In this document: in pieces, positions 2,995 to 51,714 of the stretch
Layout: every line of letters begins with the position of its first letter
Numbering within the stretch: position 1 is the stretch's first letter
Origin: Anaerolineales bacterium
Lineage (GTDB): Bacteria > Chloroflexota > Anaerolineae > Aggregatilineales > UBA2796
Assembly (NCBI GenBank): GCA_015075625.1
Contig: JABTTZ010000001.1
Location: 2,047,021-2,111,020, forward strand
DNA: 64,000 nucleotides
Direction: 5' to 3'
The notes under the pieces: model-generated
Told to the model about the DNA's origin: nothing
The model's input: only the letters and a program-made list of their open reading frames with translations
Database searches by the model: none
Translations under genes and position numbers: made by a program

Positions 2995-3628
2995 AACCAC
3001 GTAGCCCATCTATGCTGTTTGTGAAAAATGACCACATCCCCAATGACGCCACGCAATTTACGTAACGTCAACGATAATACCGCCACATATGGGGTCTCAG
3101 CATTCATGCCCTCCCAGATATGGTACTATCATGCCTACACTGTAACACAGGTCGGAGGAGATTTCAAGTGATCGAGTGGTTGTCTTTTGGTTTGAAAGTA
3201 GTATGTTTTTTCCGGTAGCAGAACATCTGCTATTTAACAAGGGACGTTCCATAAAGGTTTTTCTAAAATAGGTATACGTCGTGATGATTCAGCAATCATC
3301 GGATGAATCAAGGGCATGTTATAACAGGGCTATGTATTAAATTTTGAGGAAAGGTTTTAATTTTCTAACGTGACAGAACAGGTGTACTTCAAACGAATTT
3401 GACCCCTTCAGAGGGAATGAGAGGGGTAAGGGGCGATCTTGCCACAAACCAAAAAACAATCTGTGTTTGGGAGAGCGGGATTGTGAGATGTGCATAGTGC
3501 CAGAAGGTGCTGATTTGTTTCGGCGTCACGGGCTTGAAGGGGATGATGGGCTGTCTCCGGCGCTGGCGTAGGGGGCTGACTGTAGGGTTTGCTTGGTGTG
3601 GTGTACAAGGGAGGTTATGGGGATAGGA

Positions 3629-7900: not shown

Positions 7901-8020
7901 GCTGTATTGAGCGCTTACGGGTGGACTGATCTGGCTCTCACCGCCCGCACTCCGGCAGGGCAAGAAGCAATTTTACGGCGCTTGTTGGCGTTGAATCAAG
8001 CGCGAATATCGAAAGCGTAG
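4994..8020 (+). CDS. MmeI-family Type IIL restriction-modification enzyme (N-terminal PD-ExK nuclease + gamma-class N6-adenine methyltransferase + TRD in one polypeptide)
   Basis: D-X9-EYK nuclease motif (ADVWYKGKFAWEYKGK); FCLFAED and LGAHYTSEA blocks identical to MmeI; MTase motif I DPACGSGNFL and motif IV GNPPF; TNSI block; 1008 aa. Confidence 0.85.
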   Translation: MTLTWRDFVQRWTASALGEQQAAQSHFNELCRLVGHKTPTELDPLGEFFTFEEQVTKATGGRGRADVWYKGKFAWEYKGKHKDLDAAYAQLLAYKGSLGNPPLLIVSDMVEYRIYPQWVNTSGQPFIFRNADLLFPDAQRYIVWLLEDPDRFKELREDELRVREQLTTKLAQEFAHLSDLVRKHQDPNDLWSDYHIARFFARLTFCLFAEDVQLMPRPFDQPVFRYLTDGARNLPEDFVAEMTRLFMAMDGRQSGFVMRHVPYFNGGLFNVDDDPAHLVFDLAKDSAMIDLLEKISKRDWRKVNPTIFGTLFEAALDPAKRAQLGAHYTSEADIRLVVDPVLMQPLYDEWALTLEEAEPLFQTLFDGASPRQEETIRARLTLLHDRMMFRLETTQILDPACGSGNFLYVSLRALKDLEARVRKTFEPLGLPFRDVVTPRQLYGIEKDPYAANLAFVVIWIGYLQWRYEDQGVLSFRTRVSRPNPRHLPHPIIQDKYPDETIDHILCEDALLRYDAEGKPYEPEWVAVDVIMGNPPFLGGSRQRRELGGAYLDDLQRLYQGRLARDSDLVCYWFEKARAHLDQGKAKRVGFIATNSIRGGSNRLVLDRIKATGDIFMAWSDNPWLLAGAAVRISIVGFDNKVQTARMLDGAVVENIHADLTAGADLTGAKVLAENARICFRSDEKGGSFDIDEATARAMLAAKNRSGKSNADVVRPYINGLDVTRGRRNRWVIDFGVDTTEAEAAHYKMPYEYVKRMVKPERDMVNNERHRTYWWIHRIPAGDMREAIRPLKRFIATPSVAKHRLFVWVEGGIIPDHQLYVFARDDDYFFGVLHSYIHELWSLQKGTSLEDRPRYTPTTTFETFPLPYPPGKEDTASPLYQAISTAAKALHEGREAWLHPVELAELGATAKGKALSERTLTNLYNALAVHRAEPSMGKGKGGNGKNGDKPVKAAAQFAPQLAALHEALDRAVLSAYGWTDLALTARTPAGQEAILRRLLALNQARISKA

Positions 8021-10222: not shown

Positions 10223-12430
10223 ATGTCCGATGTTCTCGAAGCACTGGTGGGGTATGTTCTGATTGCGGGCGGACGGGCGGTGAGCGCCCCTCCCCCCGGC
10301 GCCATTGTTGAACTACCGCCCCGCAAAACCCAGCGCGGACGGGAACAAGACACATTCTTCGCGCTCATCGTGCCAGCGGGCAAAACACACCAACCCGCCC
10401 CCTTTTATGAGGGGTTGGTGCGCTATGCCGCCGATCTCTACTTTCGGGCAGGGGGGAGCGTCACCAGCGGGCTGCGCGATGTGCTGAACGCAATCAACCA
10501 GCAGCTTTTGGATCACACCGCAAACACCGGAAATAAAGCTGAAATCGGCATGGCGGCGGTAGTCTTGCGCGGGGCGGAAATTTACCTAGCGAAGGCGGGC
10601 GCGACACTGTGCGCGCTAAAACAAACCGACGATTTCACCACCCTCCCCGCCGACCTCAGCGATGCCCTCAACAGCGACCCCTTTAATCTTGGCACAAGCA
10701 CACACCCCGATGTGCGGCTTGCCCGCTATGAGGTTGCCTCTGGCGATGCGCTCTGCCTTGCCGATCTGAACCTTGCCCGCATTGAGCCAGTAGCACTGGA
10801 AGCAGCCCTTGCCAAAGGCAATCTTCCCAATGTGATCGAGGGCATTAAGGCGCTTGCCCCTGCCCAAATCCAAGCGATGATTATCGAATTTGTCTCCACA
10901 GACACGCCCGATCCGGTGCTGCCGCCCTCGCGCCCGGTCAGCACGGCTGCCCCTAGCAGCGGCGTCCTCGTCACCAGCGTCAGCAAACCGCCCAAACGTC
11001 CCACAGGGACAATCCGTATTCCGCTCACCCCCTCAACGCCCGCCAAACAGACGCTCACCCTCCCCACTCAGGAAGGGACGGTGGAGGCATCAGAGGGAGA
11101 TGAGGACACAACACCCCCAACGGAGGGAGCGCCGACCCTTCTCTCGCGGATAGGCAGCGCGGCGGGGTGGTTTGGCGGTGGGCTCAGCCGTGCGGTGGAT
11201 CGGCTGCTGCCCGAACCAACAGAAGATGGGTCGCCGCGCCTTCCGGTCATGTTCGCCGCGGCGCTGGCAATTGCCGTCCCTGTGCTGATTGTCTTTGTGA
11301 TCGTTGCCCTGCGGCTCTCGCAGTTCGATATGACGCAATTTGAACAACAGGTGCAAGAGGTGTTGAAGGCAGCCGAACAGGCGCGGGTGATCGCCCTTGC
11401 TGATGTGCCAAATGCCCGCGCCGCATGGATGGAAGTGCTGCGTCGTGTGGAGGGCGTGGAAATTGCTTCCGGGCGGACGGGCGACCCTGAACTGCTGAAA
11501 GTACGCGCCGAAGCGCAAGGGATTCTCGATCAGTTTGACAAAGTGACGCGGCGAACGCCGGTTGCCCTGCGCAATTTTGGGACAGGCGCCGTGATGAGCG
11601 ATCCGATCATACGCGGCGGGGCGGATGTCTACACGCTGGATCGGGCGTCGAGCGCCATTTACCGCGACACCTTGAATCCGAACAGTGTCGCCCTCATCAC
11701 CCGCAACGCGCAGCCAGTGGTTCAACGGGGGCAGTCGGTGGGGGCGTTCTCCGTCCGCCAGATCATCGACATGGCGTGGGTCAGCGAGGGCGGCACACAG
11801 CGGGCAAACGTCCTCGCTGCGCTCGATACACAAGGGCTGCTGATCACCTACTCGCCTACCTTTGCTCCGGCAACGGCACAGCGCTTACCAGGGGCAGATT
11901 TATGGGGCGATCCGGTGGCGATGTATGTGTGGCGCGGCAACCTTTACCTGCTTGACCCAACGGAAAACCAGATTTGGCGCTATCGTCCGGTGGGGAATAG
12001 CTATCCCAACCCGCCAGAAACCTACTTTGAGCCGGATGATCGTCCCGACCTCTCGTTAGGTGTTGATCTCGCCATTGATACGGCGGGGAATGTCTATGTT
12101 TTGTTTGCCGATGGGCTGCTTGGCAAATACAATGGGGGGACGCCGCTGAAGTTCGTCTACACGGAAATGCCCGATGGCGGCGCTCCCCGCAGCGCAGCCG
12201 CGATGTTCCTTGACGCCGATTCCCCCCTTCCAGCAATTTATGTGGTCGATCCCAAAGATCAGTCCGTCTACCAAATCACCCTATCGGGGGCGTTTCGCTA
12301 TCGGTTTCGGGCGGCAGATGGGGCGATGTTCAGCGGGGTGACCAGCGTATTTGTGACGGGGAACACCGTTTATGTGGCGGCGGGGTCGGTTTTGTACTCA
12401 TTTTCCCTTAACGACCTGACGGGGGGGTAG
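10223..12430 (+). CDS. Single-pass membrane protein: N-terminal divergent PP2C-like domain, one TM helix, C-terminal beta-propeller-like repeats
   Basis: PP2C-like blocks ALIVPAGK (DGxGG position) and MAAVVLRGAEIYLAKAGATLCAL (GDSR block with Asp replaced); TM LPVMFAAALAIAVPVLIVFVIVAL; C-terminal NVYVLFADG / TVYVAAG repeat units. ATG coupled to DegV stop. Confidence 0.55.
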   Translation: MSDVLEALVGYVLIAGGRAVSAPPPGAIVELPPRKTQRGREQDTFFALIVPAGKTHQPAPFYEGLVRYAADLYFRAGGSVTSGLRDVLNAINQQLLDHTANTGNKAEIGMAAVVLRGAEIYLAKAGATLCALKQTDDFTTLPADLSDALNSDPFNLGTSTHPDVRLARYEVASGDALCLADLNLARIEPVALEAALAKGNLPNVIEGIKALAPAQIQAMIIEFVSTDTPDPVLPPSRPVSTAAPSSGVLVTSVSKPPKRPTGTIRIPLTPSTPAKQTLTLPTQEGTVEASEGDEDTTPPTEGAPTLLSRIGSAAGWFGGGLSRAVDRLLPEPTEDGSPRLPVMFAAALAIAVPVLIVFVIVALRLSQFDMTQFEQQVQEVLKAAEQARVIALADVPNARAAWMEVLRRVEGVEIASGRTGDPELLKVRAEAQGILDQFDKVTRRTPVALRNFGTGAVMSDPIIRGGADVYTLDRASSAIYRDTLNPNSVALITRNAQPVVQRGQSVGAFSVRQIIDMAWVSEGGTQRANVLAALDTQGLLITYSPTFAPATAQRLPGADLWGDPVAMYVWRGNLYLLDPTENQIWRYRPVGNSYPNPPETYFEPDDRPDLSLGVDLAIDTAGNVYVLFADGLLGKYNGGTPLKFVYTEMPDGGAPRSAAAMFLDADSPLPAIYVVDPKDQSVYQITLSGAFRYRFRAADGAMFSGVTSVFVTGNTVYVAAGSVLYSFSLNDLTGG

Positions 12431-12458
12431 GGCGGGGCTGCGCCCCACCCGCCCCCTA
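12423..12458. terminator. GC-rich imperfect hairpin between convergent genes (possible bidirectional terminator)
   Basis: gggggtagggcggggctgcgccccacccgccccctacagg between stop of 10223..12430 (+) and stop of GH9 (-). No clear T-tract. Confidence 0.3.
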
Positions 12459-12462
12459 CAGG

Positions 12463-14787
12463 CTAACGACTGAGATAGGCAGCCAGCGCCACAAAGGTGG
12501 CGTTGGCGTCAATCGTTGGTTCGTTGGACGCCCATGAATCAAAGTCATCGGTATAGCAGAGTGCCGGCGGCGCACCCGCGCTCCACAAGCCCATGAGTGC
12601 CGCATCACCGCCCGCATTTTCACGGTTTGCCCCTTCGGTTACCACACCGGGAAGTGCCAGACGGAAGCGGTAGCTCACGTTATGATGCGGATAGAGGACG
12701 CTGTTTTCACCCATCCCGCTCAGATAGAACTTCGATACTGGGTTTTTCCCTAGCAGATAGTGCATCTGCGCCGCTGCCACATGGTGGTAATCCTCGTTGG
12801 GATCGATGTCATAGGCAAGCATCAGGTATAAGCCATGCGCCAGCGCCACCTGATTTGACCCCCAGACATAGGCAAACCCCGCTGCACTGTGGTTGAGCGC
12901 AACGCCATAGCCTGTTTTGCGAGCAACTTCGACAATTTCTCCGGCGCCGGCTAAAAATGCCTCTCGTACTGCCGCCTGCTGCTGCGGATCGGCCTTAGGG
13001 GCGGTGAGATAAGCATAAAGCCCCTGCGGAAAGGTGTTCGCCCATGTCATCGTTAGCTGCGGCGCCGCTTGGGGAAATAAAGTCGCAACCGCCCGCTCAT
13101 AGTCGGGATTGCCTGTTGTCTTGAACAACTCTGCCGCCGCCCACAGGCGGGTTGCCTCCTCACTGCCCACATAGTCATAGCCACCCTGCATGGGGTATTC
13201 GCTCTCTGGCGGGTTTTGGAAACCGCCCTCTGGGACTTGATTGGGGTGCGCCGCCAACCATGCCCAGGCCCGTTCTGCCGCCGCCAGATAGCGATCTGCG
13301 GCATCGGGATCGATGGGGCGGAAAATCCCCGCCGCTTGCGCCATTGCCGCCGCAAAAAACGCCGTGTCATTGCTGGTAATGCCGAACACATAGAGCGGGT
13401 CGCTGTCCTCGGCGGGCAAGGTGCCAAAGTTGGGGAAGGCGCGTCCGGTCACTTTATGATGGACAGCGCCATCTTCCCGCTGCATTTTCAGCAGCCAATT
13501 CAGTTCCCAGGCAACCTCATCGAGCAGATCGGGAATGCCGTTCCCGCTTTCGGGGAGCGTCAAGGTGCTATCGGCAAAGGCGGTGGGGTTCGCCGCATAT
13601 GCATAGAGCAGTTGGTTGATAGCGAAGGCGCCGGTTGGAATGTAGCGCCCATAATCGCCGGCATCATACCAACCACCACTGACATCCATCGTTTGGGTTG
13701 GATCATCCCACAAGAGGGCGGGCGCAGTGTGACCAGCCTCCCACTGGAAGGTCGGATGATCGGGGTCAGCAAGGGCAATCCCGCTCCGCTGCCAATAAAA
13801 GAAACGGGCGGCAAGGTGCGTCACGTCCCGATAGGCATCTTCGCCAATGGTAAAGGGATAGCTTTCGCCGGCGCCTTCGGCAACAACCTTGTAAGTTCCC
13901 GCTCGCCGCAGCGAGTTAAAGCGCCCCCAATACACAGTTTGGTCGGTGTCGGCATCGGGTCCCCAGCGCACAGCTTTCCCCTTAAAGACAACTTCCCCGC
14001 TGCCCACTTCGATAATTTGAAAATCACCGACGGGAACAATGGCGACAAAGGCTTTCCGTTCGTCTGGACGGTAGTATTGGCTTAGGCGTATCATGGGCAA
14101 ATCAGCAAAAAAGGTCGTGTAATCGGGCGGTGCGTTGAGGTCTTTCGTGGAAACAACCCGAATATCATCAAACCAGAGCGTCCCCGTGAGCCGCTCATCG
14201 CCCAATGCTTCCAGCGCGATCTCAAGACTTTCAATCGGGTTGGCAGCAAAGACGGTCAATCCTTCTGTTCCCATCCATGTCAGGCGCTTAAAGGCAGACC
14301 AGGGGATCATAATCTCTTGCCACCCCTGATCGGCGCCTTCGGGGGTGTGAATCAGCGCCGCAAAGGGGGTCTTGCCCGGCGACTGCGCTGAGGTTTGCGT
14401 TGGATCATTCAGGTGAAGGACGATGTTCACCGGCAGTCCGGCTTTATCGGCGCGGAGTTTGAACACAATGCCCTCACCATCGCGCCAATCGGGGGTGATC
14501 CCGAAGTCCATTCCGATTCCGGCGTAGCCTTTTGCCGCCACGTCGAGATCAAGGCGTAGCGAGCCTATCCCGTTGAAGAACGTCTCTTGATCAATCTTCG
14601 CCGAAAACGTTGTTTTTTCGGGAGAGTTATCGGTATATGTCCACCAGCGCCCCACGACGCTTCCACCCTCATAGCCCTGATCAAAGTCATCGATCAAGGT
14701 TGCCGCTTCGGGCGACTGCCCCCGTGCGCCGTGCATGGGGAATAGAAACATAAACAGCAGAACACCTGCCAAGATGAACCGGATCAT
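12463..14787 (-). CDS. Secreted glycoside hydrolase family 9 endoglucanase with N-terminal non-catalytic (CBM/Ig-like) region
   Basis: Signal peptide MIRFILAGVLLFMFLFP; GH9 signatures GGWYDAGDYGRY, HHVAAAQMHYLLGKNP, SNEPTIDANA; SD AGGAGGT 8 nt upstream. Confidence 0.85.
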   Translation of the reverse strand: MIRFILAGVLLFMFLFPMHGARGQSPEAATLIDDFDQGYEGGSVVGRWWTYTDNSPEKTTFSAKIDQETFFNGIGSLRLDLDVAAKGYAGIGMDFGITPDWRDGEGIVFKLRADKAGLPVNIVLHLNDPTQTSAQSPGKTPFAALIHTPEGADQGWQEIMIPWSAFKRLTWMGTEGLTVFAANPIESLEIALEALGDERLTGTLWFDDIRVVSTKDLNAPPDYTTFFADLPMIRLSQYYRPDERKAFVAIVPVGDFQIIEVGSGEVVFKGKAVRWGPDADTDQTVYWGRFNSLRRAGTYKVVAEGAGESYPFTIGEDAYRDVTHLAARFFYWQRSGIALADPDHPTFQWEAGHTAPALLWDDPTQTMDVSGGWYDAGDYGRYIPTGAFAINQLLYAYAANPTAFADSTLTLPESGNGIPDLLDEVAWELNWLLKMQREDGAVHHKVTGRAFPNFGTLPAEDSDPLYVFGITSNDTAFFAAAMAQAAGIFRPIDPDAADRYLAAAERAWAWLAAHPNQVPEGGFQNPPESEYPMQGGYDYVGSEEATRLWAAAELFKTTGNPDYERAVATLFPQAAPQLTMTWANTFPQGLYAYLTAPKADPQQQAAVREAFLAGAGEIVEVARKTGYGVALNHSAAGFAYVWGSNQVALAHGLYLMLAYDIDPNEDYHHVAAAQMHYLLGKNPVSKFYLSGMGENSVLYPHHNVSYRFRLALPGVVTEGANRENAGGDAALMGLWSAGAPPALCYTDDFDSWASNEPTIDANATFVALAAYLSR

Positions 14788-14803
14788 CAGAAATACCTCC
14801 TAT

Positions 14804-15667
14804 TCACGCTTTGACTGCCCCCGCCGTCATCCCTCGCAAAAATTGACGTTGGATCAAGAACACAAGGAAAATTGCCGGAATCGTGGCGAGCGCCGCGCCC
14901 GCCATCTGGATCCCCTCCACAACTGCCCCCTGCCGCACCTGCATCTGGGCAATGCCCAAAGGCAAGGTGAACATCTCTGGCTTACGGATCATCAACAGGG
15001 GCCACAAATATTCATTCCAAATGCCCAAGAACTTGATGACCAACAGGGTGCCAATTGCCGGACGGCTGAGCGGCACCACAATGTACCAAAAGGTGCGCAG
15101 CGGACCCGCCCCATCAATACGCGCCGAGTCCAACAGTTCATTGGGAATCCCTCGCATGTATTGGGTGAGCAGAAAAATGCCATAGGCATCGATAATACCG
15201 GGAATGATCAGCGCCTCATAGCGATCCAGCCAGCCGTATACCCGTGAAAACATGTAAAAGGATGGGATGAGCGTGGCATAGATAGGCAGCATCATCGTGG
15301 CGAGCATCGTCCAAAAGAGGATCGTCCGCCCCCGAAATTTGAACTTAGCGAAGGCGAACGCCGCCAATGAATCGAGGGTGGTCACCAGCAGCAGACTAAC
15401 CCCCGCCACAAAGATGCTGTTCAGGTAGTAGCGCGGATAGTCGATCTTCAGTTCAACATTGCCCACCTTTTGCCCAAACAACAGCCGTTCATATTGAATG
15501 AAGCTAGGGTTTGAGGGGAAAAACTGCCCACTGTGCAGTTCCCCATCGGGCTTGAATGAGGTGGACACCACCCACATATAAGGAATTAAATAGAGCAGCA
15601 TCGGGATGCACAACAGTGCGGCGATGATCCATTTGACCGTTTTACCCCGTCGGGTGAGTGTAACCAT
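14804..15667 (-). CDS. Carbohydrate ABC transporter permease (MalG-like)
   Basis: EAA loop LLDSARIDGAGPLRTFWYIVVPL; 6 TM; SD GGAGG. Confidence 0.85.
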   Translation of the reverse strand: MVTLTRRGKTVKWIIAALLCIPMLLYLIPYMWVVSTSFKPDGELHSGQFFPSNPSFIQYERLLFGQKVGNVELKIDYPRYYLNSIFVAGVSLLLVTTLDSLAAFAFAKFKFRGRTILFWTMLATMMLPIYATLIPSFYMFSRVYGWLDRYEALIIPGIIDAYGIFLLTQYMRGIPNELLDSARIDGAGPLRTFWYIVVPLSRPAIGTLLVIKFLGIWNEYLWPLLMIRKPEMFTLPLGIAQMQVRQGAVVEGIQMAGAALATIPAIFLVFLIQRQFLRGMTAGAVKA

Positions 15668-15693
15668 CGAACAACCTCCAACCTTCTGCGCCT

Positions 15694-16647
15694 TTAGTCG
15701 TGTGTTGTGCCGCCTTTGAAGAAGCGTGTATTGATGAAACTGGCAACGAACATCATCAGCGTTAAGGTGATGGCAATTGCCGAGGCATAGCCAAATTCCT
15801 GTTTGGAAAAGGCGCGGTCATAGAGATAGCGGGCGATGGTCTCTACCCGATGGCGGGGATCGTTGGGGACAAGCAGCGCGGGCTGAACAAAAATCCCTAA
15901 AAGGAAGATCACCCCAGTGGTCATGATGAAAAACAAGACGTTTTGCAGCAGCGGCAGGGTGATTCGGAAAAAGAGTTGATTCTCATTTGCCCCATCCAGC
16001 CGCGCTGCCTCGTAGTATTCCGTCGGGATGTTGCGCAGGGCTGAGGAAACGATGAGAACATCCCACCCCAAGCCGCTCCAGATCAGCATCACATTTAATG
16101 CCCAGATTGCGTTTGTCCCGCCGAGGAAGTCTGCGCGTTCCCCGCCCAACGCCACCAATAACCCGTTGACGGGTCCGTAATTTGTGTTGAGAAGCTGTCG
16201 CCACAAATAGGCAATGACGACGACAGAGGTCACCGCTGGCAAGAAAAAGGTGGCACGGAAAATACCCCCCAACCAATCGGGCATCCGGTCAATCAACACG
16301 GCGATGAGGACGGCTAATGCCGCGCCGATGACCGCACAAAAGAGGGTGATCCGCAGCGTGACGCCGACACTGTTCCAAAAGCGGGCATCGTTGAACAGGT
16401 TGGTAAAGTTATCAAACACGCCATCCAGCGGAATGAAACTCTTGCCCGCATCGGCGTAAGGATCCCAGCGATGAAGGCTTAAAAAAACCGAAAAGCCAAT
16501 CGGGAACAGTTGAAACGCCAAAAATGCCAAAAAAAACGGTGCAACAAAGACATAGGGCGCGTTTTTCTCCCAGAATCGCCCTGTGCGGTATGGTTTCTCG
16601 CCCGTCAGGGTTCGGGAGGCGAACAATCGAGATGCTAGTTGAGACAT
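15694..16647 (-). CDS. Carbohydrate ABC transporter permease (MalF-like)
   Basis: EAARLDGANENQLFFRITLPLL. Start chosen at MSQLASRLF (SD GGAAGG); ORF track extends to 16755. Confidence 0.8.
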   Translation of the reverse strand: MSQLASRLFASRTLTGEKPYRTGRFWEKNAPYVFVAPFFLAFLAFQLFPIGFSVFLSLHRWDPYADAGKSFIPLDGVFDNFTNLFNDARFWNSVGVTLRITLFCAVIGAALAVLIAVLIDRMPDWLGGIFRATFFLPAVTSVVVIAYLWRQLLNTNYGPVNGLLVALGGERADFLGGTNAIWALNVMLIWSGLGWDVLIVSSALRNIPTEYYEAARLDGANENQLFFRITLPLLQNVLFFIMTTGVIFLLGIFVQPALLVPNDPRHRVETIARYLYDRAFSKQEFGYASAIAITLTLMMFVASFINTRFFKGGTTHD

Positions 16648-16774
16648 GCGAACCTTCCAGTGACCCAACGCCGCACGGTATGACAAAAGGTAGGTATGAT
16701 AGAGACAGGGCGACGACACGGGCATTGGGAAGCACCGCCAAGCGCTTGGTCCCAATGCCCGCCAGAAGAAAGGC

Positions 16775-18040
16775 TTACTTCAGCGCCGGACTAGATGCCA
16801 CCGCGTTATCGAGTGATTCTTTCACGTCGCCGCCCTCTTTCGTCACGATGTAAATCGCTTCGCCAAGATGTTCGGCAACTTCCGCCGAGGGTAATTCCAT
16901 CCCGCGCACCTGCACCGCCCATTCAGAGATCAGCTTTGCCAGCGGTACACCGAGGTACTCGTTGTCTTGGCTTAGGTCAATGTGCTGCCATGCCGTCTGG
17001 AGGGCAGGGACGCCACCGACCTTCTCATAGTAGGTTGCCATGACTTCGGGCTGTTCCATATAAACCAAGAATTGGCGGGCGAGGTCTTGTGCCTTCGATG
17101 CCTTCGGAATGGAGAAGCACGCCCCACCTGTGGAGGCGTGGTATTTCCGGTCTTCAGGACCAAAGGGCATGGGCGCAACGCCCCATTTGCCTTCCAACTC
17201 TGGGGCGACGGCTGCCAGTTCGGTGGCATACCATGAGCCACGCATCACGGCGAGAACTTCGCCATTCTTCAGCGCGGCAGCCTGATCGCCATCGGAAGCA
17301 TCGTCCCACAAGCGGGCAACTTTGTAGGTGTTGGCGAGGTCGTTGTAGAGCGTCAGCGCTGCCACCGCCGCCTCGTTGTTATAGAGGTAGGTGCTGCCAT
17401 CTTCGCTGACCAAGCGCCCGTTGTAGGGCGTCAGGAAGCCCTGATAGAACCCGTAGTAGTCATTGACACCGAGCAGAATGGCATACTGCTTGTCTTTTGT
17501 GATTGCCTGCGCAACCTTCACAAAATCGGCTGTGTTAGCGGGGAAGCCATCCAGCCCTGCCGCCTTGATTGCCGGGTCATAGATATCTTTGCGGTAAAAC
17601 ACCACATTGAAATCGAGATCGGCGGGAACGCCATATTGTTTGCCGGCGTACCCGCACAGTTCCCAACCGCCCCCAGTGAAGTCTGCCGGGTTCAGTTCGT
17701 TCTCGATTCCATCCAAAGCAACCACTGCCCCATTGCGGATCAGATCGCCCGCCCACATGGGATCAAGGGTCACCACATCAGGCGCGTTTTCCCCGGCGGC
17801 AAGCGCCGTGACCACCGCATCCCGATAGGGATCGTACTCAAACCGCTCAATATTCACCGTAACGCCCGGGTGCGCCGCCTCAAAGCCGGGTTTGATGCTG
17901 TCCAGCCAATCTGCCGTCCAAACAAACCCCCACACGGTGATCGTCTGCTCTTGGGCAGCTTGTGCCGGATGTGTGCTAGGCGCAGCGGCTATCAGCAGCA
18001 GCGCCACCACCACAAAGAGTAAACCAACTTTCTTAATCAT
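16775..18040 (-). CDS. ABC transporter sugar-binding protein (solute-binding family 1), secreted
   Basis: Signal peptide MIKKVGLLFVVVALLLIAAAP; family-1 SBP fold; SD GGAGGAG. Confidence 0.85.
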   Translation of the reverse strand: MIKKVGLLFVVVALLLIAAAPSTHPAQAAQEQTITVWGFVWTADWLDSIKPGFEAAHPGVTVNIERFEYDPYRDAVVTALAAGENAPDVVTLDPMWAGDLIRNGAVVALDGIENELNPADFTGGGWELCGYAGKQYGVPADLDFNVVFYRKDIYDPAIKAAGLDGFPANTADFVKVAQAITKDKQYAILLGVNDYYGFYQGFLTPYNGRLVSEDGSTYLYNNEAAVAALTLYNDLANTYKVARLWDDASDGDQAAALKNGEVLAVMRGSWYATELAAVAPELEGKWGVAPMPFGPEDRKYHASTGGACFSIPKASKAQDLARQFLVYMEQPEVMATYYEKVGGVPALQTAWQHIDLSQDNEYLGVPLAKLISEWAVQVRGMELPSAEVAEHLGEAIYIVTKEGGDVKESLDNAVASSPALK

Positions 18041-18124
18041 CGAACAACTCCTCCAAACCTTTCGGACATTTTGGTGATCGTTTCACACAGCGCCCCATCG
18101 AAAAGCGCCATGACTCACCCAACC

Positions 18125-19150
18125 TTAGAGCGCCATCTGCTTGCGCAGTGTGGCTAAAAACCCATCCCCTGTGGGGTAGGCGCAGCGATCCGCTGCCAAA
18201 AGCGCCGCCCCAACAACGGGGGGCTGGTTTAAACGCTGCACAACAACCTGTGGTGCAGCGGAAGCAAGCTGATCTCGAATGGTGTCAGTGAGCAAGGGGT
18301 TTGCCGCCCGAAACACGCCGCCGCCGAGGACGACATCACAATCCGTCCCCAATAGATCGAGGCAGCGCAGCATCGTGAGTGCCGCCGTACTAAGTTCTAG
18401 CCCCTGTTCGCGGATGATCCCTTGCGCAAGCGCATCCCCCGCCGCCGCTGTCTCAAAGAGCAGCGGGACAAGCGCCCGCATCTGATCGGCGGAAATCGTC
18501 CCGTTTTCGTAATCGGCAGCGAGGGTCAGGTAATCAGGCTTTTGCCATAGGCGCAAAATGGCGCCTTCCAAGAGGGTTGGCGCTCCGCGTCCATCCCACG
18601 CACGAAAGGCAGCCCCAACCGCCTCTATCGCTAGATGATCGCCCCCCGCTCGATCTCCGGTGAACCCACCGAGTGCCGGAAAGCGAAGCTCGCGCCCGTG
18701 TTGATCGACACCGCCCGCATTGAAGCCCGTCCCACAGACGACGCCGACCCCATAGGGAAAGCGGCTGCCCGCCCGAAAAATGCCGATCACATCGTTATAG
18801 ACTTCAAAGGAACAGCCCAACGGCAGCGCGGTGAACGCCTCACGCAGGCGGGTAAAATCTTGGGGAAGGTCTGCCCCCGCCATGCAAAATGCGGCGCTTT
18901 CGAGGGCAAGAGACCCAGTACCAGACAGATCAGCGCCACTTGTTTGAGCCTCTGCCACCGCCTGCCCAATAGCGCTGCGGGCATTGGCGATCACTTCTGC
19001 CATGCCTGCGGTGTGGTAATTCCCGCGCCCGCTCCGCCCTTTTCCTAAGACCATGCCCCGCCCATCAAGGATGAGGGCGTCCGTTTTTGAGCCGCCGCCA
19101 TCAACGCCGAGGAAATAGGGGGGGAGAGGTGTGCCTGCCGTGCCGGTCAT
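18125..19150 (-). CDS. BadF/BadG/BcrA/BcrD-type ATPase, N-acetylglucosamine-kinase-like sugar kinase
   Basis: YFLGVDGGGSKTDALILDGRGMVLGKG... (ASKHA phosphate-1 motif). Start at MTGTAGTP gives ATGA overlap with the upstream GH4 stop. Confidence 0.75.
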   Translation of the reverse strand: MTGTAGTPLPPYFLGVDGGGSKTDALILDGRGMVLGKGRSGRGNYHTAGMAEVIANARSAIGQAVAEAQTSGADLSGTGSLALESAAFCMAGADLPQDFTRLREAFTALPLGCSFEVYNDVIGIFRAGSRFPYGVGVVCGTGFNAGGVDQHGRELRFPALGGFTGDRAGGDHLAIEAVGAAFRAWDGRGAPTLLEGAILRLWQKPDYLTLAADYENGTISADQMRALVPLLFETAAAGDALAQGIIREQGLELSTAALTMLRCLDLLGTDCDVVLGGGVFRAANPLLTDTIRDQLASAAPQVVVQRLNQPPVVGAALLAADRCAYPTGDGFLATLRKQMAL

Positions 19151-20421
19151 GACCCTTCTCCTTTGGGATGGAACTGGGGGAGATAGTCCCAATGGGCGGT
19201 CTTAATCGCCTTCCACAGGGCAACGGCTTTATCCCATGAGCCAACGAGGGGGTTGCTGAACAGCGCCATGATTGCCATATCCTCGCTGCCGGTGACTGCC
19301 GCTTGGATGGTCAGTTCTTCGTATGCCTTCACTGCACCCATCAAGCCGCGCACGGTGGGCGGTAGGCTGCCCATGGTCAAGGGGCGGGCGCCCGTTTTGC
19401 TGACGACGCAGGGGACTTCTACCGCGCAGTCCGGCGGCAGATCGGGGACGGCTGTTCCGTTGCGCGTGTTCACAATCAGCACATCACGGCGATCCAGCGC
19501 AATAGAGCGGATCAATTCCACCGCCGCCGTTGAGTAATGCGCCCCGCCACGTGTTTCCAGCAGTTTGGGCTTTTCGCGCAGGGTGGGGTCGCTGTACAGT
19601 TTTAGCAGTTCCGCTTCCACCGTCTGTAAATATTGCCCCCGACTTTGGGCGGCGTTTTTCTGCTCTTGGAGGACACGATCAGGATGCACGTAGTAGCGCA
19701 AATAGTAGTTGGGCAGCAGTCCAACGGCTTTCAAATAGCCCGCGTCCACCTGCCCGCCGCTTGTCCCCCACTCTGTTGCCAAGACGTGGGCGGTGACATC
19801 CTTGCCATCGACCCACACCCGCGTCCAACTGAGGTGATTCAGCCCCACATACTCAAGTTCAACGGCTTCTAGGGGGACATTGAGCGTCTGGGCAAGGCTG
19901 ATCCGCAAGTTGATCGGCACGTTGCACAGCCCAATGGCGCGGGTCGCGGTGTGACGCAAGATTGCCTCGGTGACGATCCCCGCTGGATTGGTAAAGTTGA
20001 TCAAGGTCGCATCGGGGGAAATGTCTGCCATGCGGCGGGCAATGGTCAGCATCACCGGAATGGTGCGCAGCGCTTTGGCAAAGCCGCCCGGTCCGACGGT
20101 TTCCTGACCCAAGACGCCGTGTGGCAAAGGGAGTTGTTCATCAAGCGCCCGTGCCGCCAAACCGCCAATGCGCATTTGGGTGAGGACAAAATCCATCCCG
20201 TCAAGGGCATCGTCAAGCTGTGTCGTCAGAGACACTTCGACGCCGCACGGCGCTAACATACGCTGCGCCAGCCCGCCAACGGTGCGCAGGCGTTCCTCGG
20301 AAATATCCATCAGCACCAGATGTTCAAGGGGGAGTTCAGCCGCATGGCGAACAAAGCCCTCCACAAGTTCGGGGGTGTAGGTGCTGCCGCCCCCCACCAC
20401 AGCAATTCGCAACGGTTTCAT
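19147..20421 (-). CDS. GH4 6-phospho-beta-glucosidase (CelF/ChbF-like)
   Basis: VVGGGSTYTPELVEGF, GQETVGPGGFAKALRTIPVM, INFTNPAGIVTEAILRHT, GLCNVPI closely match E. coli ChbF blocks. Confidence 0.85.
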   Translation of the reverse strand: MKPLRIAVVGGGSTYTPELVEGFVRHAAELPLEHLVLMDISEERLRTVGGLAQRMLAPCGVEVSLTTQLDDALDGMDFVLTQMRIGGLAARALDEQLPLPHGVLGQETVGPGGFAKALRTIPVMLTIARRMADISPDATLINFTNPAGIVTEAILRHTATRAIGLCNVPINLRISLAQTLNVPLEAVELEYVGLNHLSWTRVWVDGKDVTAHVLATEWGTSGGQVDAGYLKAVGLLPNYYLRYYVHPDRVLQEQKNAAQSRGQYLQTVEAELLKLYSDPTLREKPKLLETRGGAHYSTAAVELIRSIALDRRDVLIVNTRNGTAVPDLPPDCAVEVPCVVSKTGARPLTMGSLPPTVRGLMGAVKAYEELTIQAAVTGSEDMAIMALFSNPLVGSWDKAVALWKAIKTAHWDYLPQFHPKGEGS

Positions 20422-21710
20422 TGGGTCAGTTTCCTTGGGGCAAATTGAGGGAGATAGTCAGCATGTTCGGCGACCAACGCCGCTAAGAGGGAACGCGCCA
20501 CCGCAAACGACGGAACTAAGGGATGTGCCAGCAGAGATTGCAAGGCTATCCCTAAATTGCCCGCCACTGCCGCCTGAACAGCCAGCGCTTCCGAGGCTTT
20601 GACGGATTCCATTAACCCGCGAATGATCGTTGGTATCGGCGCGGCGGGCAGCGGGTGAGCGCCTTCGGCATCAACACGGCAGGCGGTTTCAATGACCGCA
20701 TCTGGCGGAAGGCTGCTAAACGTTCCCTGATTCAAGACATTAACAACGTTCACTGCGCCCGTATCGTGCCACAAGGCATGGATAATGCGCATTGCCGCTG
20801 TGGAGTAGTGGCGTCCGCCACGTTGGTTCAGCAGAGCGGGGCGCTCCACCGTCAGCGGGTCGGCATAGAGCCGGAACAACTCACTTTCAATTTCCATCAC
20901 GCGCTCTGTGCGCGACTGCGTGCTTTGCACCTGTTCGGTGAGCATCCGATCTCGGTTGTAATAATAGGAAAGGTAATACCCTGGGAGAAGCCCCAGGGTA
21001 TGCAGCAGATCGGGCGAAAAGAGGGGGTCTTTTTCCTGTCGGGCGGCATGGATGGTCGCTTGCAAGACGCGCTCCATCACGGACACGCCATCCAGATGAA
21101 CATCGCGCACCCATCCCAAGTGATTCAACCCAATGTAATCAAGGGTGATCCGTTCTAGGGAGACATCCAGAAGCCGCGCCGCATCAGAGTGCATATCCAT
21201 CGGAATATTGCACAAGCCAAGTGTTTTGACCTTTGTCTCGTGCAGCAGCGCCTCGGTGACCATCCCCGATGGGTTGGTAAAGTTGAGCAGCCACGCGGAA
21301 GGGCAGTACCGTTCGATATCCTCGGCAATGCCTAACATGATTGGGATCGTGCGCATTGCCTTCAGCAGTCCGCCGGGACCGATGGTCTCTTGCCCAATCA
21401 CGCCAAAGCGTGGGGGGACAGTTTCATCAATCAAGCGTGCTGCCATCCCGCCCACCCGCAGTTGGGCAATGACAAAATCCGCCCCGTCCAGCGCCCGCTC
21501 GCGGTGGGTCGTCGCGCTTAGGGTGAGCGGATAGCCGGCATGGTGAAGCATCCGGGAGACCATCCCGTGCATCACCGCCAAACGCTCTTGGTAGATATCG
21601 ACAAGGGCAAGTTCGCGGAGGGGAATCTCGTCCCGCCGTTGAATCAGCCCATCGATCACTTCGGGTGTGTAGGTGCTGCCGCCGCCAATGATTACGAGTT
21701 TTGCGCCCAT
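20418..21710 (-). CDS. GH4 6-phospho-beta-glucosidase paralog (CelF/ChbF-like)
   Basis: IIGGGSTYTPEVIDGL, GQETIGPGGLLKAMRTIPIM, LNFTNPSGMVTEALLHET, GLCNIPM; 4-nt overlap with the downstream paralog. Confidence 0.85.
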   Translation of the reverse strand: MGAKLVIIGGGSTYTPEVIDGLIQRRDEIPLRELALVDIYQERLAVMHGMVSRMLHHAGYPLTLSATTHRERALDGADFVIAQLRVGGMAARLIDETVPPRFGVIGQETIGPGGLLKAMRTIPIMLGIAEDIERYCPSAWLLNFTNPSGMVTEALLHETKVKTLGLCNIPMDMHSDAARLLDVSLERITLDYIGLNHLGWVRDVHLDGVSVMERVLQATIHAARQEKDPLFSPDLLHTLGLLPGYYLSYYYNRDRMLTEQVQSTQSRTERVMEIESELFRLYADPLTVERPALLNQRGGRHYSTAAMRIIHALWHDTGAVNVVNVLNQGTFSSLPPDAVIETACRVDAEGAHPLPAAPIPTIIRGLMESVKASEALAVQAAVAGNLGIALQSLLAHPLVPSFAVARSLLAALVAEHADYLPQFAPRKLTQ

Positions 21711-21722
21711 GACAGCCCTTCC

Positions 21723-22817
21723 TTAAACCGTTGTTTCCGCGAGGGAAATAGCCAACTTACCCGCCCCCAACAGCGCTGCATCATCCCGTTTATGTGCTGG
21801 ATGGAGCAGCAGACCGCCACTGTGCGCCCCTAACGCCGTATGCAGCAAGGGAATCAAGACATCGGCAGCGTAAATCCACGCCCCGCTCAAGACGACATGC
21901 TGAACGGCAAATAAACTGCGCATCCACAGCAGGGCGTTTGCTAGATCGTTAGCAAGATGGGTGACGGCACGCAGGGCAAGCGCATCCCGCTGCCGCGCAG
22001 CCTCAAAGATTAGGCGTGCGCTCAGCGGGCGGGTGGTGAGGACGCTCTCAGGACAGTCGGCAAATCCGGCTTGGACGTGGGCAATCAATCCCCCATCGCA
22101 TAAGCGGCTGTGCAGCGGGCTGCCGTCGGCATCAACCCCTAACCCCCCGATGCGTGTTTTTCCCTCAAGGTAGAGGCAGCAGCAGCTTTGCACCCCCAAA
22201 TAGAGCGTTAGGAAAGCAGTTTCCCCTCGCAGCAGTTCCGATTCCGTCTCGGCTAGGGCAACCGCCGCCGCCGGATGGATCGCCGCCACCGGAATTTCAA
22301 GGCGGGTTTGCAACGTATCTTGTAGGGTCTGCTGTTGAAGGAGATCACTGTCACCCGTCAGAGTCAGCGCCGAAAACTGGGAGCGATAGCTAGGGTTTGC
22401 CTCAAACAATTCCTCAATCAGCGTGAGCAAAAGCGTGGGCAGTTCAGAGGCGCTGAGGGCGGGCATGAGAAAAGGGGTGATTAACTGCGTGCGGCGGGTC
22501 AGAATCGCGCCGCTGAGGTCTGCCATAATGCCTGTAATTTGGGTCTCATCGACGCGGATCGCGGCGACCAACTGAGCGCGGTTGTTGAAGCGCAGCAAGA
22601 CGCGCTTGCGTCCAACGTTCTTGCTCTCGTCTTCGCCTTCTTCCAGAATCACCCCTTCATCAAGCAGCAGCCGCGTGATGCGGGAGATCGTGGCGGCGTT
22701 CAGGTCAAGCATCTGCGCCAACTCCACACGGGAGATAGGTCCCTGCCGCTGAATGGTCGCCAAGACCATTGCCCGGTTGTGCTGCCGCATCAATTCAGGA
22801 TGTTGCGTTTGCGACAT
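21723..22817 (-). CDS. ROK-family transcriptional regulator (NagC/Mlc/XylR-like)
   Basis: N-terminal HTH ELMRQHNRAMVLATIQRQGPISRVELAQMLDLNAATISRITRLL followed by ROK sugar-kinase-like domain. Start at MSQTQH with SD AGGTGG; ORF track extends to 22859. Confidence 0.8.
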   Translation of the reverse strand: MSQTQHPELMRQHNRAMVLATIQRQGPISRVELAQMLDLNAATISRITRLLLDEGVILEEGEDESKNVGRKRVLLRFNNRAQLVAAIRVDETQITGIMADLSGAILTRRTQLITPFLMPALSASELPTLLLTLIEELFEANPSYRSQFSALTLTGDSDLLQQQTLQDTLQTRLEIPVAAIHPAAAVALAETESELLRGETAFLTLYLGVQSCCCLYLEGKTRIGGLGVDADGSPLHSRLCDGGLIAHVQAGFADCPESVLTTRPLSARLIFEAARQRDALALRAVTHLANDLANALLWMRSLFAVQHVVLSGAWIYAADVLIPLLHTALGAHSGGLLLHPAHKRDDAALLGAGKLAISLAETTV

Positions 22818-22860
22818 TGCCCTGTAACGTCCACCTAAAAGGAAAAAAATAACGCTCATT

Positions 22861-22894
22861 CATTAATTGATTGCAAGCACGCAATCAATTAATG
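22861..22894. promoter_or_regulatory. Perfect 14-bp inverted repeat CATTAATTGATTGC-N6-GCAATCAATTAATG, candidate operator of the ROK regulator
   Basis: Lies immediately downstream of the predicted -10 and overlaps the expected transcription start of the ROK-GH4-kinase-ABC-GH9 operon. Confidence 0.55.
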
Positions 22895-22897
22895 ATC

Positions 22898-22926
22898 ATT
22901 GTATGCGGAGAAAAAACGTTTGTCAA
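22898..22926 (-). promoter_or_regulatory. Sigma70 consensus promoter for the minus-strand ROK/beta-glucoside operon (-35 TTGACA, 17 bp, -10 TACAAT)
   Basis: Minus-strand reading ttgacaaacgttttttctccgcatacaat; plus-strand tgtcaa at 22921-22926 and attgta at 22898-22903. Confidence 0.55.
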
Positions 22927-23029
22927 GCAATTGGACAAACTGAGGATAGTGATCGAAAGAAGCAAGGTGAGAAGGGTGAGGTTCTTAAGCGGTAGGGCGC
23001 GGCGCGAGTGATTCTCTGACCGTTTGCAA

Positions 23030-23100
23030 CTGAGGGCGCATTTCTCCCCCCTTTCCCTGCCTACGGGGAAAGGCGACTGCTGCGCAGTAACCGGGGGGGG
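23030..23100. repeat. RF1-related fragment (CCCTTTCCCT-N-GGGAAAGGCGA hairpin + GGGGGGATAGAGGGGTTC module)
   Basis: Shares modules with 46419-46506 and 55540-55610. Confidence 0.4.
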
Positions 23101-23169
23101 ATAGAGGGGTTCTGAACCAAAACGTCAACACAGCCTAGCAGCCCATCAGGAGGGGCGTTCGATACATCT

Positions 23170-24114
23170 CTATCCCGCCGCCGCCCGCACCGCCCGCCGA
23201 ATCGCCGCTGCCGTCACCTCGGCGGCGAACGCCCCAATCATCCCCACAAAGCCCGCGCCCAAGCCCTCCCCTTGAATCTCACCTGTTGCCGCCGCAAAAA
23301 TGGTATCCCCATCGAAGGGCATGTGCGCCGGACGCACCGCCCGCGCCAGCCCATCATGCGCCATCTGCGCCACTTTGTTCGTCCCCTCTTTATCAAGGGC
23401 AGCGTTCGTCGCCACAATCCCGATCACTGTATTCGTCGGCGCGGGGGGCTGCGTGAAGGGCATCCGCAGAATCTCTAGGGCGGGGATGATCTCAGTCGGA
23501 TTCGCGGGGTTTCGTGCGCCGACAAGGATCGATCCATCTTCGGAAAGGATTTCACCGAGCGCATTGACGACGATCAGCGCGGCGACGATCAGCCCCCCGC
23601 CGATCTCCACCGCCGCCGAGCCAACCCCGCCGAGGGCGGGTGTGCCGAACATTTTTGCCACTGTCGCCCCCGCCCCGCCGCCCACACGTCCCTCAGCGAC
23701 GGGTTCGCTGCTTGCGTTTTCGCAAGCAGCATAGCCCATTGCCGCATCGGGGCGGCGTTTGTTTCCCGTGCTGGTCAGGTCGTAGATCACAGCGGCAGGG
23801 ACAATCGGCACCACGCCCGACAGCGTTGGAAAGCCGATTCCGCGTTCCTCCAACCAACGCATGACGCCATCGGCTGCCGCCAGTCCGAAGGCGCTGCCGC
23901 CCGTCAGCACGACAGCGTTGATGTGCTGCACCAGATGGAGCGGGCGAAGCAGATCGGTTTCCCGTGTGCCGGGGGCGCCGCCGCGCTGATCCACGCCGCC
24001 CACCGTCCCGGGCGGGAGCAAAATCACGGTGCAGCCCGTTGGATGGTCGGGATCGGTGGCGTGTCCAACGCGCACACCCGAGATAGCAGTTAGCGTAGCC
24101 TGTGATGGAATCAT
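23170..24114 (-). CDS. S58 (DmpA/OAT) family peptidase, L-aminopeptidase/D-esterase-like
   Basis: GVRVGHATDPDHPTGCTVILLP..., TNTVIGIVATNAALDK typical of DmpA-type Ntn hydrolases. Confidence 0.8.
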   Translation of the reverse strand: MIPSQATLTAISGVRVGHATDPDHPTGCTVILLPPGTVGGVDQRGGAPGTRETDLLRPLHLVQHINAVVLTGGSAFGLAAADGVMRWLEERGIGFPTLSGVVPIVPAAVIYDLTSTGNKRRPDAAMGYAACENASSEPVAEGRVGGGAGATVAKMFGTPALGGVGSAAVEIGGGLIVAALIVVNALGEILSEDGSILVGARNPANPTEIIPALEILRMPFTQPPAPTNTVIGIVATNAALDKEGTNKVAQMAHDGLARAVRPAHMPFDGDTIFAAATGEIQGEGLGAGFVGMIGAFAAEVTAAAIRRAVRAAAG

Positions 24115-51689: not shown

Positions 51690-51714
51690 CACCCCTAACA
51701 TTTCCTCAGCGCTG

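Follow-up and report, generated by a model that had tools for sequence, protein, structure and literature searches.

In the 64,000-nt stretch of DNA analysed here (the window), positions 12463-22926 carry eight minus-strand genes that appear to form one autoregulated operon, running from a repressor of the ROK family to a secreted family 9 glycoside hydrolase (GH9) and including a BadF/BcrAD-family sugar kinase, two family 4 glycoside hydrolases (GH4a and GH4b) and an ATP-binding cassette (ABC) importer. The phospho-beta-glycosidases of family GH4 are normally explained by a phosphotransferase system (PTS) that delivers phosphorylated disaccharides. We propose that in this operon ABC uptake and the kinase probably replace the PTS, so that oligosaccharides would be imported, phosphorylated and then cleaved. 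In addition, we lean, if only slightly, towards the view that GH4-linked BadF kinases constitute a distinct family of oligosaccharide 6-kinases that spans seven or more phyla and replaces the PTS for 6'-phospho-beta-disaccharides, and that here a single kinase serves two anciently diverged GH4 enzymes which would dismantle beta-glucan or chitosan-type oligomers residue by residue. This proposal is built on direct observations, namely which genes are present, to which classes the enzymes belong, the signals of an operon, and the conservation of both the kinase-GH4 cassette and the operon. The whole block is present, identical or nearly so, on 23 public contigs of a lineage of metagenome-assembled genomes (MAGs) in the Aggregatilineales (Chloroflexota, Anaerolineae).

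A scan with the kinase profile, with one genome kept per species, gave 80 loci (comparison loci are given below by their L numbers, and their gene calls are simple open reading frame (ORF) picks). We observed that a GH4 gene lies at most 300 nt from the kinase gene in 51 of the 80 and at 0.6-3.5 kb in 5 more, and that many of the kinase/GH4 junctions overlap by 1-16 nt. The pair is found in Anaerolineae, Caldilineae, Chloroflexia, Paenibacillus, Cohnella, Clostridia, Ruminiclostridium, Dictyoglomota, Armatimonadota, Actinomycetota and Deinococcales. The metal-binding Cys motif reads CNxP in 39 of the 40 kinase-adjacent GH4 proteins in which it could be read. The genes most often met beside the pair in the same orientation encode two permeases of the CUT1 type, a binding protein and a regulator, the latter of AraC, LacI, ROK or GntR type, and no PTS of the ChbA/B/C type was detected within about 10 kb of the kinase loci (97 sequences). 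In a neighbour-joining tree of the kinases, the GH4-linked proteins form one clade, with MurK and a set of unlinked kinases outside it and with only a few secondary losses of the linkage inside it, for example in Hydrogenedentota; our kinase and GH4 trees carry no support values.

The same pair exists in Thermotoga. The sequence of the Thermotoga 6-phospho-beta-glucosidase BglT was rebuilt from a PDB alignment, its genomic copies were located and their contexts were read. In Thermotoga sp. RQ7 and Mc24, a BcrAD_BadFG gene coding for 319-325 amino acids overlaps the start of bglT; BglT from Mc24 is 97% identical to that from T. maritima, and the Thermotoga BadF protein aligns with the whole length of the window kinase at 28% identity (E = 5e-25), the neighbour-joining tree placing the two in one clade. 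BglT requires a 6-phospho substrate (PMC10628242), and the Thermotogales are devoid of sugar PTS, except for a fructose system in two strains (PMC3750489). Since the two genes overlap in such hosts, the BadF kinase would be the only visible source of the BglT substrate in Thermotoga. The entries for this pair in the supplement of PMC3750489 give TM1280 as bglK, a 'novel glucosamine kinase' that was experimentally assayed with glucosamine as substrate (PMID 22885293 being listed), beside TM1281, bglT, both under 'hypothetical sugar utilisation'. The idea, drawn from gene context, that the kinase feeds BglT is thus already implicit in the gene name bglK. As in the window, a BadF kinase gene overlaps that of a GH4 protein of the CNVP type, here in a host lineage devoid of sugar PTS; unlike in the window, the Thermotoga pair has only housekeeping genes around it and comprises one GH4, without transporter, regulator or secreted enzyme, whereas in the window the cassette is joined by another GH4, an ABC importer, a repressor of the ROK family and a GH9 that would be secreted. 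The preliminary description of this DNA, made from its sequence alone, had claimed that the kinase provides the phosphate after ABC uptake. Synteny speaks in favour of such a role, given the adjacency to GH4 in 51 of the 80 loci, the accompanying CUT1 genes and the PTS-less Thermotoga.

The kinase itself matches PF01869 with 91.2 bits, for a cutoff of 31.5. Its DGGGSKT, ND, CGTGFN and GD motifs (D17-G19-K22-T23, N119-D120, C139-G140...N144 and G165-D166) are invariant in 27 homologues, and the sequence is that of an intact BadF/BcrAD-family kinase of the ASKHA type. When the kinase profile was compared with known structures, the matches were the MurNAc/GlcNAc kinase MurK (1.4e-44), the hexokinase of S. 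tokodaii (3.5e-36) and human NAGK (2.5e-20). The linkage to GH4 argues for a glycoside as the acceptor that this kinase would phosphorylate. The sequence RAWDGRG, considered as a marker of a disaccharide subfamily, was dropped, MurK having the related SFDKRG at the same place. PF00480, the family of the ROK kinases, is not matched by the window kinase. The BglK protein of Klebsiella pneumoniae is of the ROK family, whereas the window kinase belongs to PF01869 and the only ROK protein of the operon is a winged helix-turn-helix (wHTH) regulator. Klebsiella BglK is an ATP-dependent kinase that converts free beta-glucosides into 6-phospho-beta-glucosides (Thompson et al. 2002, via PMC10628242). 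It provides a documented, PTS-independent precedent for the kinase step proposed here; the likeness is one of function and not of family, and the window kinase may work like BglK as an analogue from outside its family. A full-text literature search found no paper naming a beta-glucoside or disaccharide kinase of the BadF family.

The two GH4 proteins match PF02056 (182 and 195 bits) and PF11975 (180 and 162 bits), and both have the NAD+-binding GxGS motif as GGGSTYTPE at residues 10-18. In the PDB, their best matches are the 6-phospho-beta-glucosidases of Geobacillus (5c3m/1s6y, about 1e-117), followed by BglT of T. maritima (1e-68 to 1e-73), 6-phospho-alpha-glucosidases (1e-44 to 1e-59) and non-phospho alpha-glucosidases (1e-10 to 1e-15); the entry 6wbt, deposited as 'cellulase IBT99', is a moderately close GH4 relative. 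We aligned GH4a and GH4b with E. coli ChbF, E. coli MelA and Thermotoga BglT, the class with a CDMP motif not being included. According to a rule reportedly due to Hall, Pikis and Thompson in 2009, CNxP marks 6-phospho-beta enzymes, CH(S/E/G) non-phospho alpha-glycosidases and CDMP 6-phospho-alpha-glucosidases. The metal-binding Cys motif is GLCNVP in GH4b and in BglT, GLCNIP in GH4a, GVCNIP in ChbF and GLCHS in MelA. The segment GLNHL, which contains the His metal ligand, is invariant in the alignment, and the Tyr segments LPNYYLRYY and LPGYYLSYY of the window proteins align with LVNPYLRYY of BglT. GH4a, GH4b, ChbF and BglT all have the Arg of QxRxGG and that of RGGxxYS, both of which MelA lacks; these two residues presumably bind the phosphate. 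GH4b is 39% identical to ChbF, 37% to BglT and 29% to MelA. From the CN[V/I]P motif, GLNH, the Tyr segment, the two Arg residues and the PDB ranking, GH4a and GH4b are assigned to the 6-phospho-beta-glycosidase class (ChbF/BglT) and not to the alpha-glycosidase class. The preliminary description was therefore right to call them ChbF-like, the CNVP/CNIP motifs and shared Arg residues being joined by best PDB matches of 1e-117 to 6-phospho-beta-glucosidases against 1e-14 to an alpha-glucosidase, and the alternative it had named, action on non-phosphorylated alpha-glycosides, is unsupported by the motifs and by the PDB ranking. An identity as alpha-galactosidase or AglA was also considered and rejected: the corresponding NCBIfam matches are below threshold and are contradicted by the PDB ranking and the motif alignment.

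The two GH4 proteins are 46% identical to each other, and each has its own orthologues: 56% and 59% for GH4a (L008:3770-5071 and L100:6422-7726), 61% and 65% for GH4b (L008:5068-6327 and L100:7736-8992). The neighbour-joining tree of the GH4 proteins separates them into two clades of Chloroflexi, both of which include single GH4 proteins paired with a kinase, and in the kinase tree the window kinase groups with the partners of the GH4b lineage. The GH4 duplication is old, with both copies retained. These results are most simply read as the acquisition, by a GH4b-kinase cassette, of another GH4 whose own kinase had been lost, one kinase now serving both. Since the two copies have been kept in three lineages, GH4a and GH4b may well differ in substrate, be it by linkage, by chain length or by the choice between glucose and glucosamine (GlcN); cellobiose and chitobiose, the example given in the preliminary description, would be one conceivable pair of substrates.

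Several signals suggest that the eight genes are transcribed together (Table 1). The preliminary description had listed a GH9, an ABC importer, a BadF-type kinase, two GH4 proteins and a ROK protein, and the Pfam matches of the eight minus-strand ORFs bear out this list, domain by domain and at the coordinates of the table. From ROK to GH9, the junctions measure 12, -4 (ATGA), -4 (ATGA), 84, 49-127, 26 and 16 nt, and a sequence resembling a Shine-Dalgarno site (GGAGG/AGGA) precedes the start at each junction. The junctions are indeed short or overlapping, as had been stated, but the 'several' ATGA overlaps come down to two, at which the start of GH4b overlaps the stop of GH4a and that of the kinase overlaps the stop of GH4b. 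The upper end given in the preliminary description, 22926, coincides with the first base of a promoter-like site, and at the lower end, 12463, the stop codon of GH9 finishes.

Table 1. Genes and candidate regulatory sites of the proposed operon in the window
Feature	Coordinates	Strand	Basis
Promoter, sigma-70-like, TTGACA-17 nt-TACAAT	22898-22926	-	11/12 matches
Candidate ROK operator, perfect 15-nt inverted repeat TCATTAATTGATTGC-N6-GCAATCAATTAATGA	22860-22895	.	
ROK-family regulator, wHTH and divergent ROK domain (operon gene 1)	21723-22817	-	Pfam
GH4a, NAD+/Mn2+-dependent, 6-phospho-beta-glycosidase-type, motif GLCNIP	20418-21710	-	Pfam, PDB ranking, alignment
GH4b, 6-phospho-beta-glycosidase-type, motif GLCNVPIN as in BglT	19147-20421	-	Pfam, PDB ranking, alignment
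Putative sugar 6-kinase, BadF/BcrAD family, ASKHA	18125-19150	-	PF01869, 91 bits
CUT1-type extracellular solute-binding protein	16775-18040	-	SBP_bac_1, 125 bits
ABC permease 1, MalF/UgpA-like	15694-16647 (start uncertain: ATG 16647 or 16725)	-	BPD_transp_1
ABC permease 2, MalG/UgpE-like	14804-15667	-	BPD_transp_1
Putatively secreted CBM11 + Ig-like (CelD_N) + GH9, beta-1,4-glucanase-type, 774 aa	12463-14787	-	Pfam
GC-rich hairpin directly after the GH9 stop, between convergent genes	12414-12463	-	Folding

The promoter-like sequence is the best such site in 12000-23400, and the inverted repeat begins 3 nt downstream of its -10 hexamer. This repeat is unique in the window and had no match in 100 shuffled sequences. 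In L008 and L100, the same -35/-10 layout followed by the core AATTnnTTGCnTnCnTGCAATCAATTAA stands at the same position upstream of the ROK genes; the ROK proteins of these two loci are only about 41-42% identical to that of the window, yet the core is kept. We read this palindrome at the start site as the candidate operator of an autoregulated repressor. At the other end, the terminal hairpin folds with -43.4 kcal/mol (z = -2.7), none of 200 shuffled sequences folding equally well; it is devoid of a U-tract and is the probable end of the operon. Taken with the junctions and their Shine-Dalgarno sites, the single strong promoter with its unique palindrome and the terminal hairpin suggest that the eight genes, from the ROK repressor to GH9, make up one autoregulated operon.

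The regulator has Pfam matches to HTH_24, MarR and ROK, and its C-terminal ROK domain is very divergent (41.6 bits). Its best PDB matches are ROK regulators and Mlc; its best NCBIfam match is NagC, a weak one, and the match to Mlc is weak as well. The canonical zinc motif CxCGxxGC was not found in this protein, which has CCC at residues 212-214 instead. An alternative ATG of the ROK gene, at 22859, lies inside the operator.

The complete gene order ROK-GH4-GH4-kinase-binding protein-permease-permease-GH9 is found again in a second organism, on the L100 contig. Compared with the window, the identities are 53% for GH9 (over 772 residues, signal peptide and carbohydrate-binding module included), 59% for GH4a, 65% for GH4b, 51% for the kinase and 41% for ROK. 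When the transporter genes were compared (L100:10202-13826 with window 14804-18040), we observed that the binding protein of L100 (464 aa, without Pfam match) has no detectable similarity to that of the window and that the permeases are only about 32% identical. The two operons thus differ by an exchange of the ABC transporter, the enzymes and the regulator having been kept. L008 retains ROK-GH4a-GH4b-kinase, with the order of the paralogues unchanged, and the close relatives of the kinase (47-54% identity; L096-L099) mostly stand in a GH4-kinase pair alone, in varied surroundings. When metagenomes were scanned with the GH9 clade, a single close orthologue turned up, at the end of a contig, and the operon was not found again. 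The gene for NagB-II on the L100 contig was considered as a ninth operon gene and rejected, a hairpin with a 13-bp stem and a T-tract separating it from GH9.

These data also bear on the possibility that the regulator-GH4-kinase block and the ABC-GH9 block are separate units with unrelated roles, which happen to be neighbours. The 84 nt that separate the binding-protein gene from that of the kinase would fit with this, as would the non-orthologous transporter of L100, which indicates that such blocks can be exchanged. However, the search for sites resembling a promoter or a terminator gave none in these 84 nt, L100 keeps the gene order and GH9 in spite of the transporter swap, and the whole has a single strong promoter with its operator and a single terminal hairpin. 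We therefore hold a fortuitous juxtaposition to be very improbable.

The importer consists of a family-1 binding protein and two permeases of the MalF/MalG type, all of the CUT1 class. The operon has no gene for an ABC ATPase, and the only one in the window (51604-52770) belongs to another transporter; CUT1 systems usually share an ATPase encoded elsewhere. The best PDB match of the binding protein is Lin1841 (5ysb, 1.4e-25). As a separate observation, this protein has a cleavable-looking signal peptide (…HPAQA|AQEQ) without a lipobox Cys, which would be unusual in a single-membrane cell; all signal peptides were assessed by eye.

The last gene of the operon codes for a protein that is predicted to be secreted, its N-terminus being read by eye as MIRFILAGVLLFMFLFPMHGA|RGQ. 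It matches CBM_11 with 28.1 bits (marginal, for a cutoff of 27), CelD_N with 33.5 bits and Glyco_hydro_9 with 262 bits, the CBM11 domain lying at about 14140-14721 and the catalytic domain at about 12484-13833. An exhaustive search with the N-terminal domain gave 154 relatives, when a word-index search had given one protein only, and CBM_11 (PF03425) is matched in 32 of the 60 multidomain relatives, with a best E value of 6e-74; this domain is thus, by its relatives, a true CBM11. Seven proteins combine such a domain with GH9 and two with GH5, and GH26, GH92, GH114 and a polysaccharide lyase each occur once as catalytic partner. Chitinase and chitosanase families are absent among the 25 most frequent CBM11 partner families listed. 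All 18 PDB matches of the GH9 enzyme are endoglucanases, cellobiohydrolases or a xyloglucanase, the best one being a compost endoglucanase (3x17, 1e-92). The catalytic motifs DAGD (GGWYDAGDYG) and NEPTID (SNEPTIDAN) are intact. The signature PHHR reads PHHN (residue ~703) in the window enzyme and likewise in its clade (L100, P0242, P0243, P0246 and P0320). This change was considered as a sign of specificity for glucosaminides and dropped as non-diagnostic, the signature Arg being missing in 23 of 76 more distant GH9 homologues (13 PHHQ, 2 PYHQ, 3 PHHN and others).

Two further observations concern these domains. Among the 60 multidomain proteins with a related CBM11-like domain, 12 are Ser/Thr protein kinases, 7 match CIA30 and 7 match TPR_19; the occurrence on protein kinases suggests that a glucan-binding fold has been reused as a sensor. 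In addition, GH9 genes whose products are 30-35% identical to that of the window lie 3-6 kb from a gene for a ChbC-like PTS EIIC in L108-L112, L115, L116, L119, L138, L139 and L142. Several contigs of this group are labelled as human-gut metagenome. The group as a whole represents a PTS-linked counterpart of the arrangement seen in the operon.

We can now consider how the operon might work. The secreted GH9, targeted by its CBM11, would cut beta-1,4 or mixed-linkage glucan outside the cell, and the oligomers would be imported by the CUT1 ABC system with an ATPase encoded elsewhere. The kinase would then use ATP to phosphorylate O6 of the residue at the non-reducing end, and GH4a or GH4b, by NAD+/Mn2+-dependent redox-elimination, would free a sugar 6-phosphate and leave a chain one unit shorter that could be phosphorylated again. 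ROK would repress the operon at the start-site palindrome until an oligosaccharide or a sugar phosphate builds up. In this scheme we infer from the sequences the activities of all eight proteins, the action of the kinase before GH4 and the identity of the sugar. By its context in the various genomes, the cassette could handle beta-disaccharides terminated by glucose or by GlcN. The GH9/CBM11 enzyme tips the balance towards beta-glucan, although not decisively. Since this enzyme favours a glucan feed, we tentatively propose a route for beta-linked gluco-oligosaccharides with glucose as the sugar, fed by cellodextrins or mixed-linkage beta-glucan, an assignment that falls just short of an even chance. 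The beta-glucoside/cellodextrin function put forward in the preliminary description has in its favour the GH9/CBM11 enzyme, and against it the glucosamine record of TM1280 and the amino-sugar genes that flank the pair elsewhere.

Indeed, several observations weigh against the proposed route. The solved relatives of the kinase (MurK, the S. tokodaii hexokinase and human NAGK) are all O6 kinases of gluco-configured monosaccharides, and TM1280, the sole assayed member of the kinase clade, is recorded with activity on a monosaccharide, glucosamine, in its entry in the PMC3750489 supplement. The linkage to GH9 is known only from the window lineage and from L100. The informative neighbours of the pair in other genomes are amino-sugar and not glucan genes (about 14 loci), and the locus closest to the GH4b-kinase pair in the genome collection, L007 (GH4 64%), continues with a PIG-L deacetylase. 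Finally, a PTS may be encoded elsewhere in the genome: the Pfam tables, made from four overlapping stretches, cover the 64-kb window entirely, and it is in this window that no PTS component was found.

Some of these points would fit with a kinase that acts on monosaccharides (glucose or GlcN) and captures the released sugar, with the GH4 enzymes fed by an unlinked PTS or acting on unphosphorylated oligosaccharides. MurK, NAGK, the archaeal hexokinase and TM1280 (the latter by its supplement entry) are all described with monosaccharide substrates, the 'cellulase' 6wbt is a moderately close relative of the GH4 proteins and the PTS search had the 64-kb window as its scope. However, the GH4 proteins keep every residue that is common to ChbF and BglT and missing in MelA, BglT is reported to need the 6-phosphate (PMC10628242), the pair would have no substrate source in the PTS-less Thermotogales (PMC3750489), and the tight linkage in 51 of 80 loci, next to ABC genes and away from PTS genes, is hard to explain for a generic hexokinase. 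We consequently regard this explanation as quite improbable.

The genes that adjoin the pair in other genomes bear rather on the nature of the sugar. A PIG-L/LmbE deacetylase gene directly flanks the pair in L007, L039, L042 and L056, and ChbG-like genes accompany it in L044 and L061 and a GH20 gene in L031. L066 and L082 have a NagB gene within the pair or next to it, NagB-II is encoded in L014, L016 and L100, and GntR/UTRA regulators are found by the pair in six loci. These arrangements could mean that ABC uptake, kinase and GH4 act in succession as proposed and that the sugar is glucosamine, taken from chitosan-type or partly deacetylated chito-oligosaccharides. The kinase would then act on non-reducing GlcN and on free GlcN, the GH4 enzymes would release GlcN 6-phosphate (GlcN-6-P) like ChbF, a deaminase encoded elsewhere would make fructose-6-P, and GH9 would be a glucosaminide-tolerant endo-enzyme. 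The amino-sugar genes in about 14 loci are in keeping with this, and so are the annotation of E. coli ChbF as a monoacetylchitobiose-6-phosphate hydrolase, the weak NagC match of the window ROK, the Asn that replaces the Arg of the 'H-x-R' signature in the window GH9 clade, and the listing of TM1280 as an assayed glucosamine kinase in the supplement of PMC3750489. On the other hand, the window has neither a deacetylase nor a deaminase gene, a terminator-like hairpin with a T-tract stands between NagB-II and GH9 in L100, all the solved relatives of GH9 are glucanases, the chitinase and chitosanase families do not appear among the 25 most frequent CBM11 partner families listed, and the Arg is replaced by Asn or Gln in 23 of 76 GH9 homologues, so that the change is non-diagnostic. 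To our knowledge, no endo-chitosanase is known in GH9. A glucosamine substrate thus seems rather unlikely to us, and for the operon of the window we keep to the glucan assignment, as tentative as it is. Beside these neighbours, in two MAGs that are unclassified (L012:10996-12322 and L015:11002-12363) the gene immediately after the pair is GlmU-like (NTP_transferase + Hexapep, 453 aa), which hints that GlcN-6-P from the pair may feed UDP-GlcNAc synthesis there.

Several known systems resemble the operon in part. The chbBCARFG operon of E. coli has a GH4 (ChbF, with a CNIP motif and 39% identity to GH4b) and phosphorylates O6 of the non-reducing residue before GH4 cleavage; unlike the window operon, it takes the phosphate from a PTS (ChbBCA), has the deacetylase ChbG and the regulator ChbR, and has one GH4 and no secreted polysaccharidase. 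In the licRBCAH operon of B. subtilis, the 6-phospho-beta-glucosidase LicH, a GH4 protein, completes the degradation of the oligosaccharides that a secreted glucanase releases from beta-glucan, but with uptake and phosphorylation by a lichenan-specific PTS, the regulator LicR and no kinase or ABC system. The (GlcNAc)2 operon VC0611-VC0620 of Vibrio cholerae has an ABC importer, an Ig-like + GH9 protein and a BadF-family kinase, the glucosamine kinase GspK; its GH9, however, is a cytoplasmic exo-glucosaminidase without signal peptide or carbohydrate-binding module, its kinase acts on free GlcN and it has no GH4. The making of 6-phospho-beta-glucosides by a kinase (Klebsiella BglK) and the cleavage of PTS-derived 6'-phospho-disaccharides by GH4 (chb, and also lic) are thus already known. 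The novelty lies in a polysaccharide operon that is complete and self-contained, with the kinase-GH4 cassette at its core and two GH4 genes, and in a cassette that is widespread and travels with ABC importers.

If the proposal is true, it would explain where the BglT substrate comes from in the PTS-less Thermotoga, and it would add a third cytoplasmic route for the breakdown of beta-oligosaccharides beside hydrolysis and phosphorolysis. The annotation of sugar pathways would change in PTS-poor phyla such as Chloroflexota, Thermotogota and Dictyoglomota, in which the present annotations 'N-acetylglucosamine kinase' and '6-phospho-beta-glucosidase' carry no mutual link. It would also provide a simple enzyme pair to make and cleave 6'-phospho-oligosaccharides. 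With eight genes, one promoter and one operator, the operon offers a compact test case.

The rest of the window contains other genes. A plus-strand ORF of 735 aa (10223-12430), without Pfam match and present on all the contigs of the lineage, is convergent with GH9, and its 3' end overlaps the terminal hairpin. The window starts (1-2240, minus strand) inside the gene of a ribonucleotide reductase of 2168 aa with repeated intein-splicing and LAGLIDADG domains (Pfam; L092:1852-9115), which is followed by a gene for NrdR (2371-3009, minus strand). A restriction-modification enzyme of 1008 aa of the MmeI family (type IIL; MmeI_hel, MmeI_Mtase and MmeI_TRD) is encoded at 4994-8020 on the plus strand. 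Further away, the plus-strand run at 55671-62345 codes for a VWA protein, a PP2C phosphatase, an ORF of 84 aa, a Ser/Thr protein kinase and a protein of 944 aa with a faint Ig-like match, and it looks like a signalling module.

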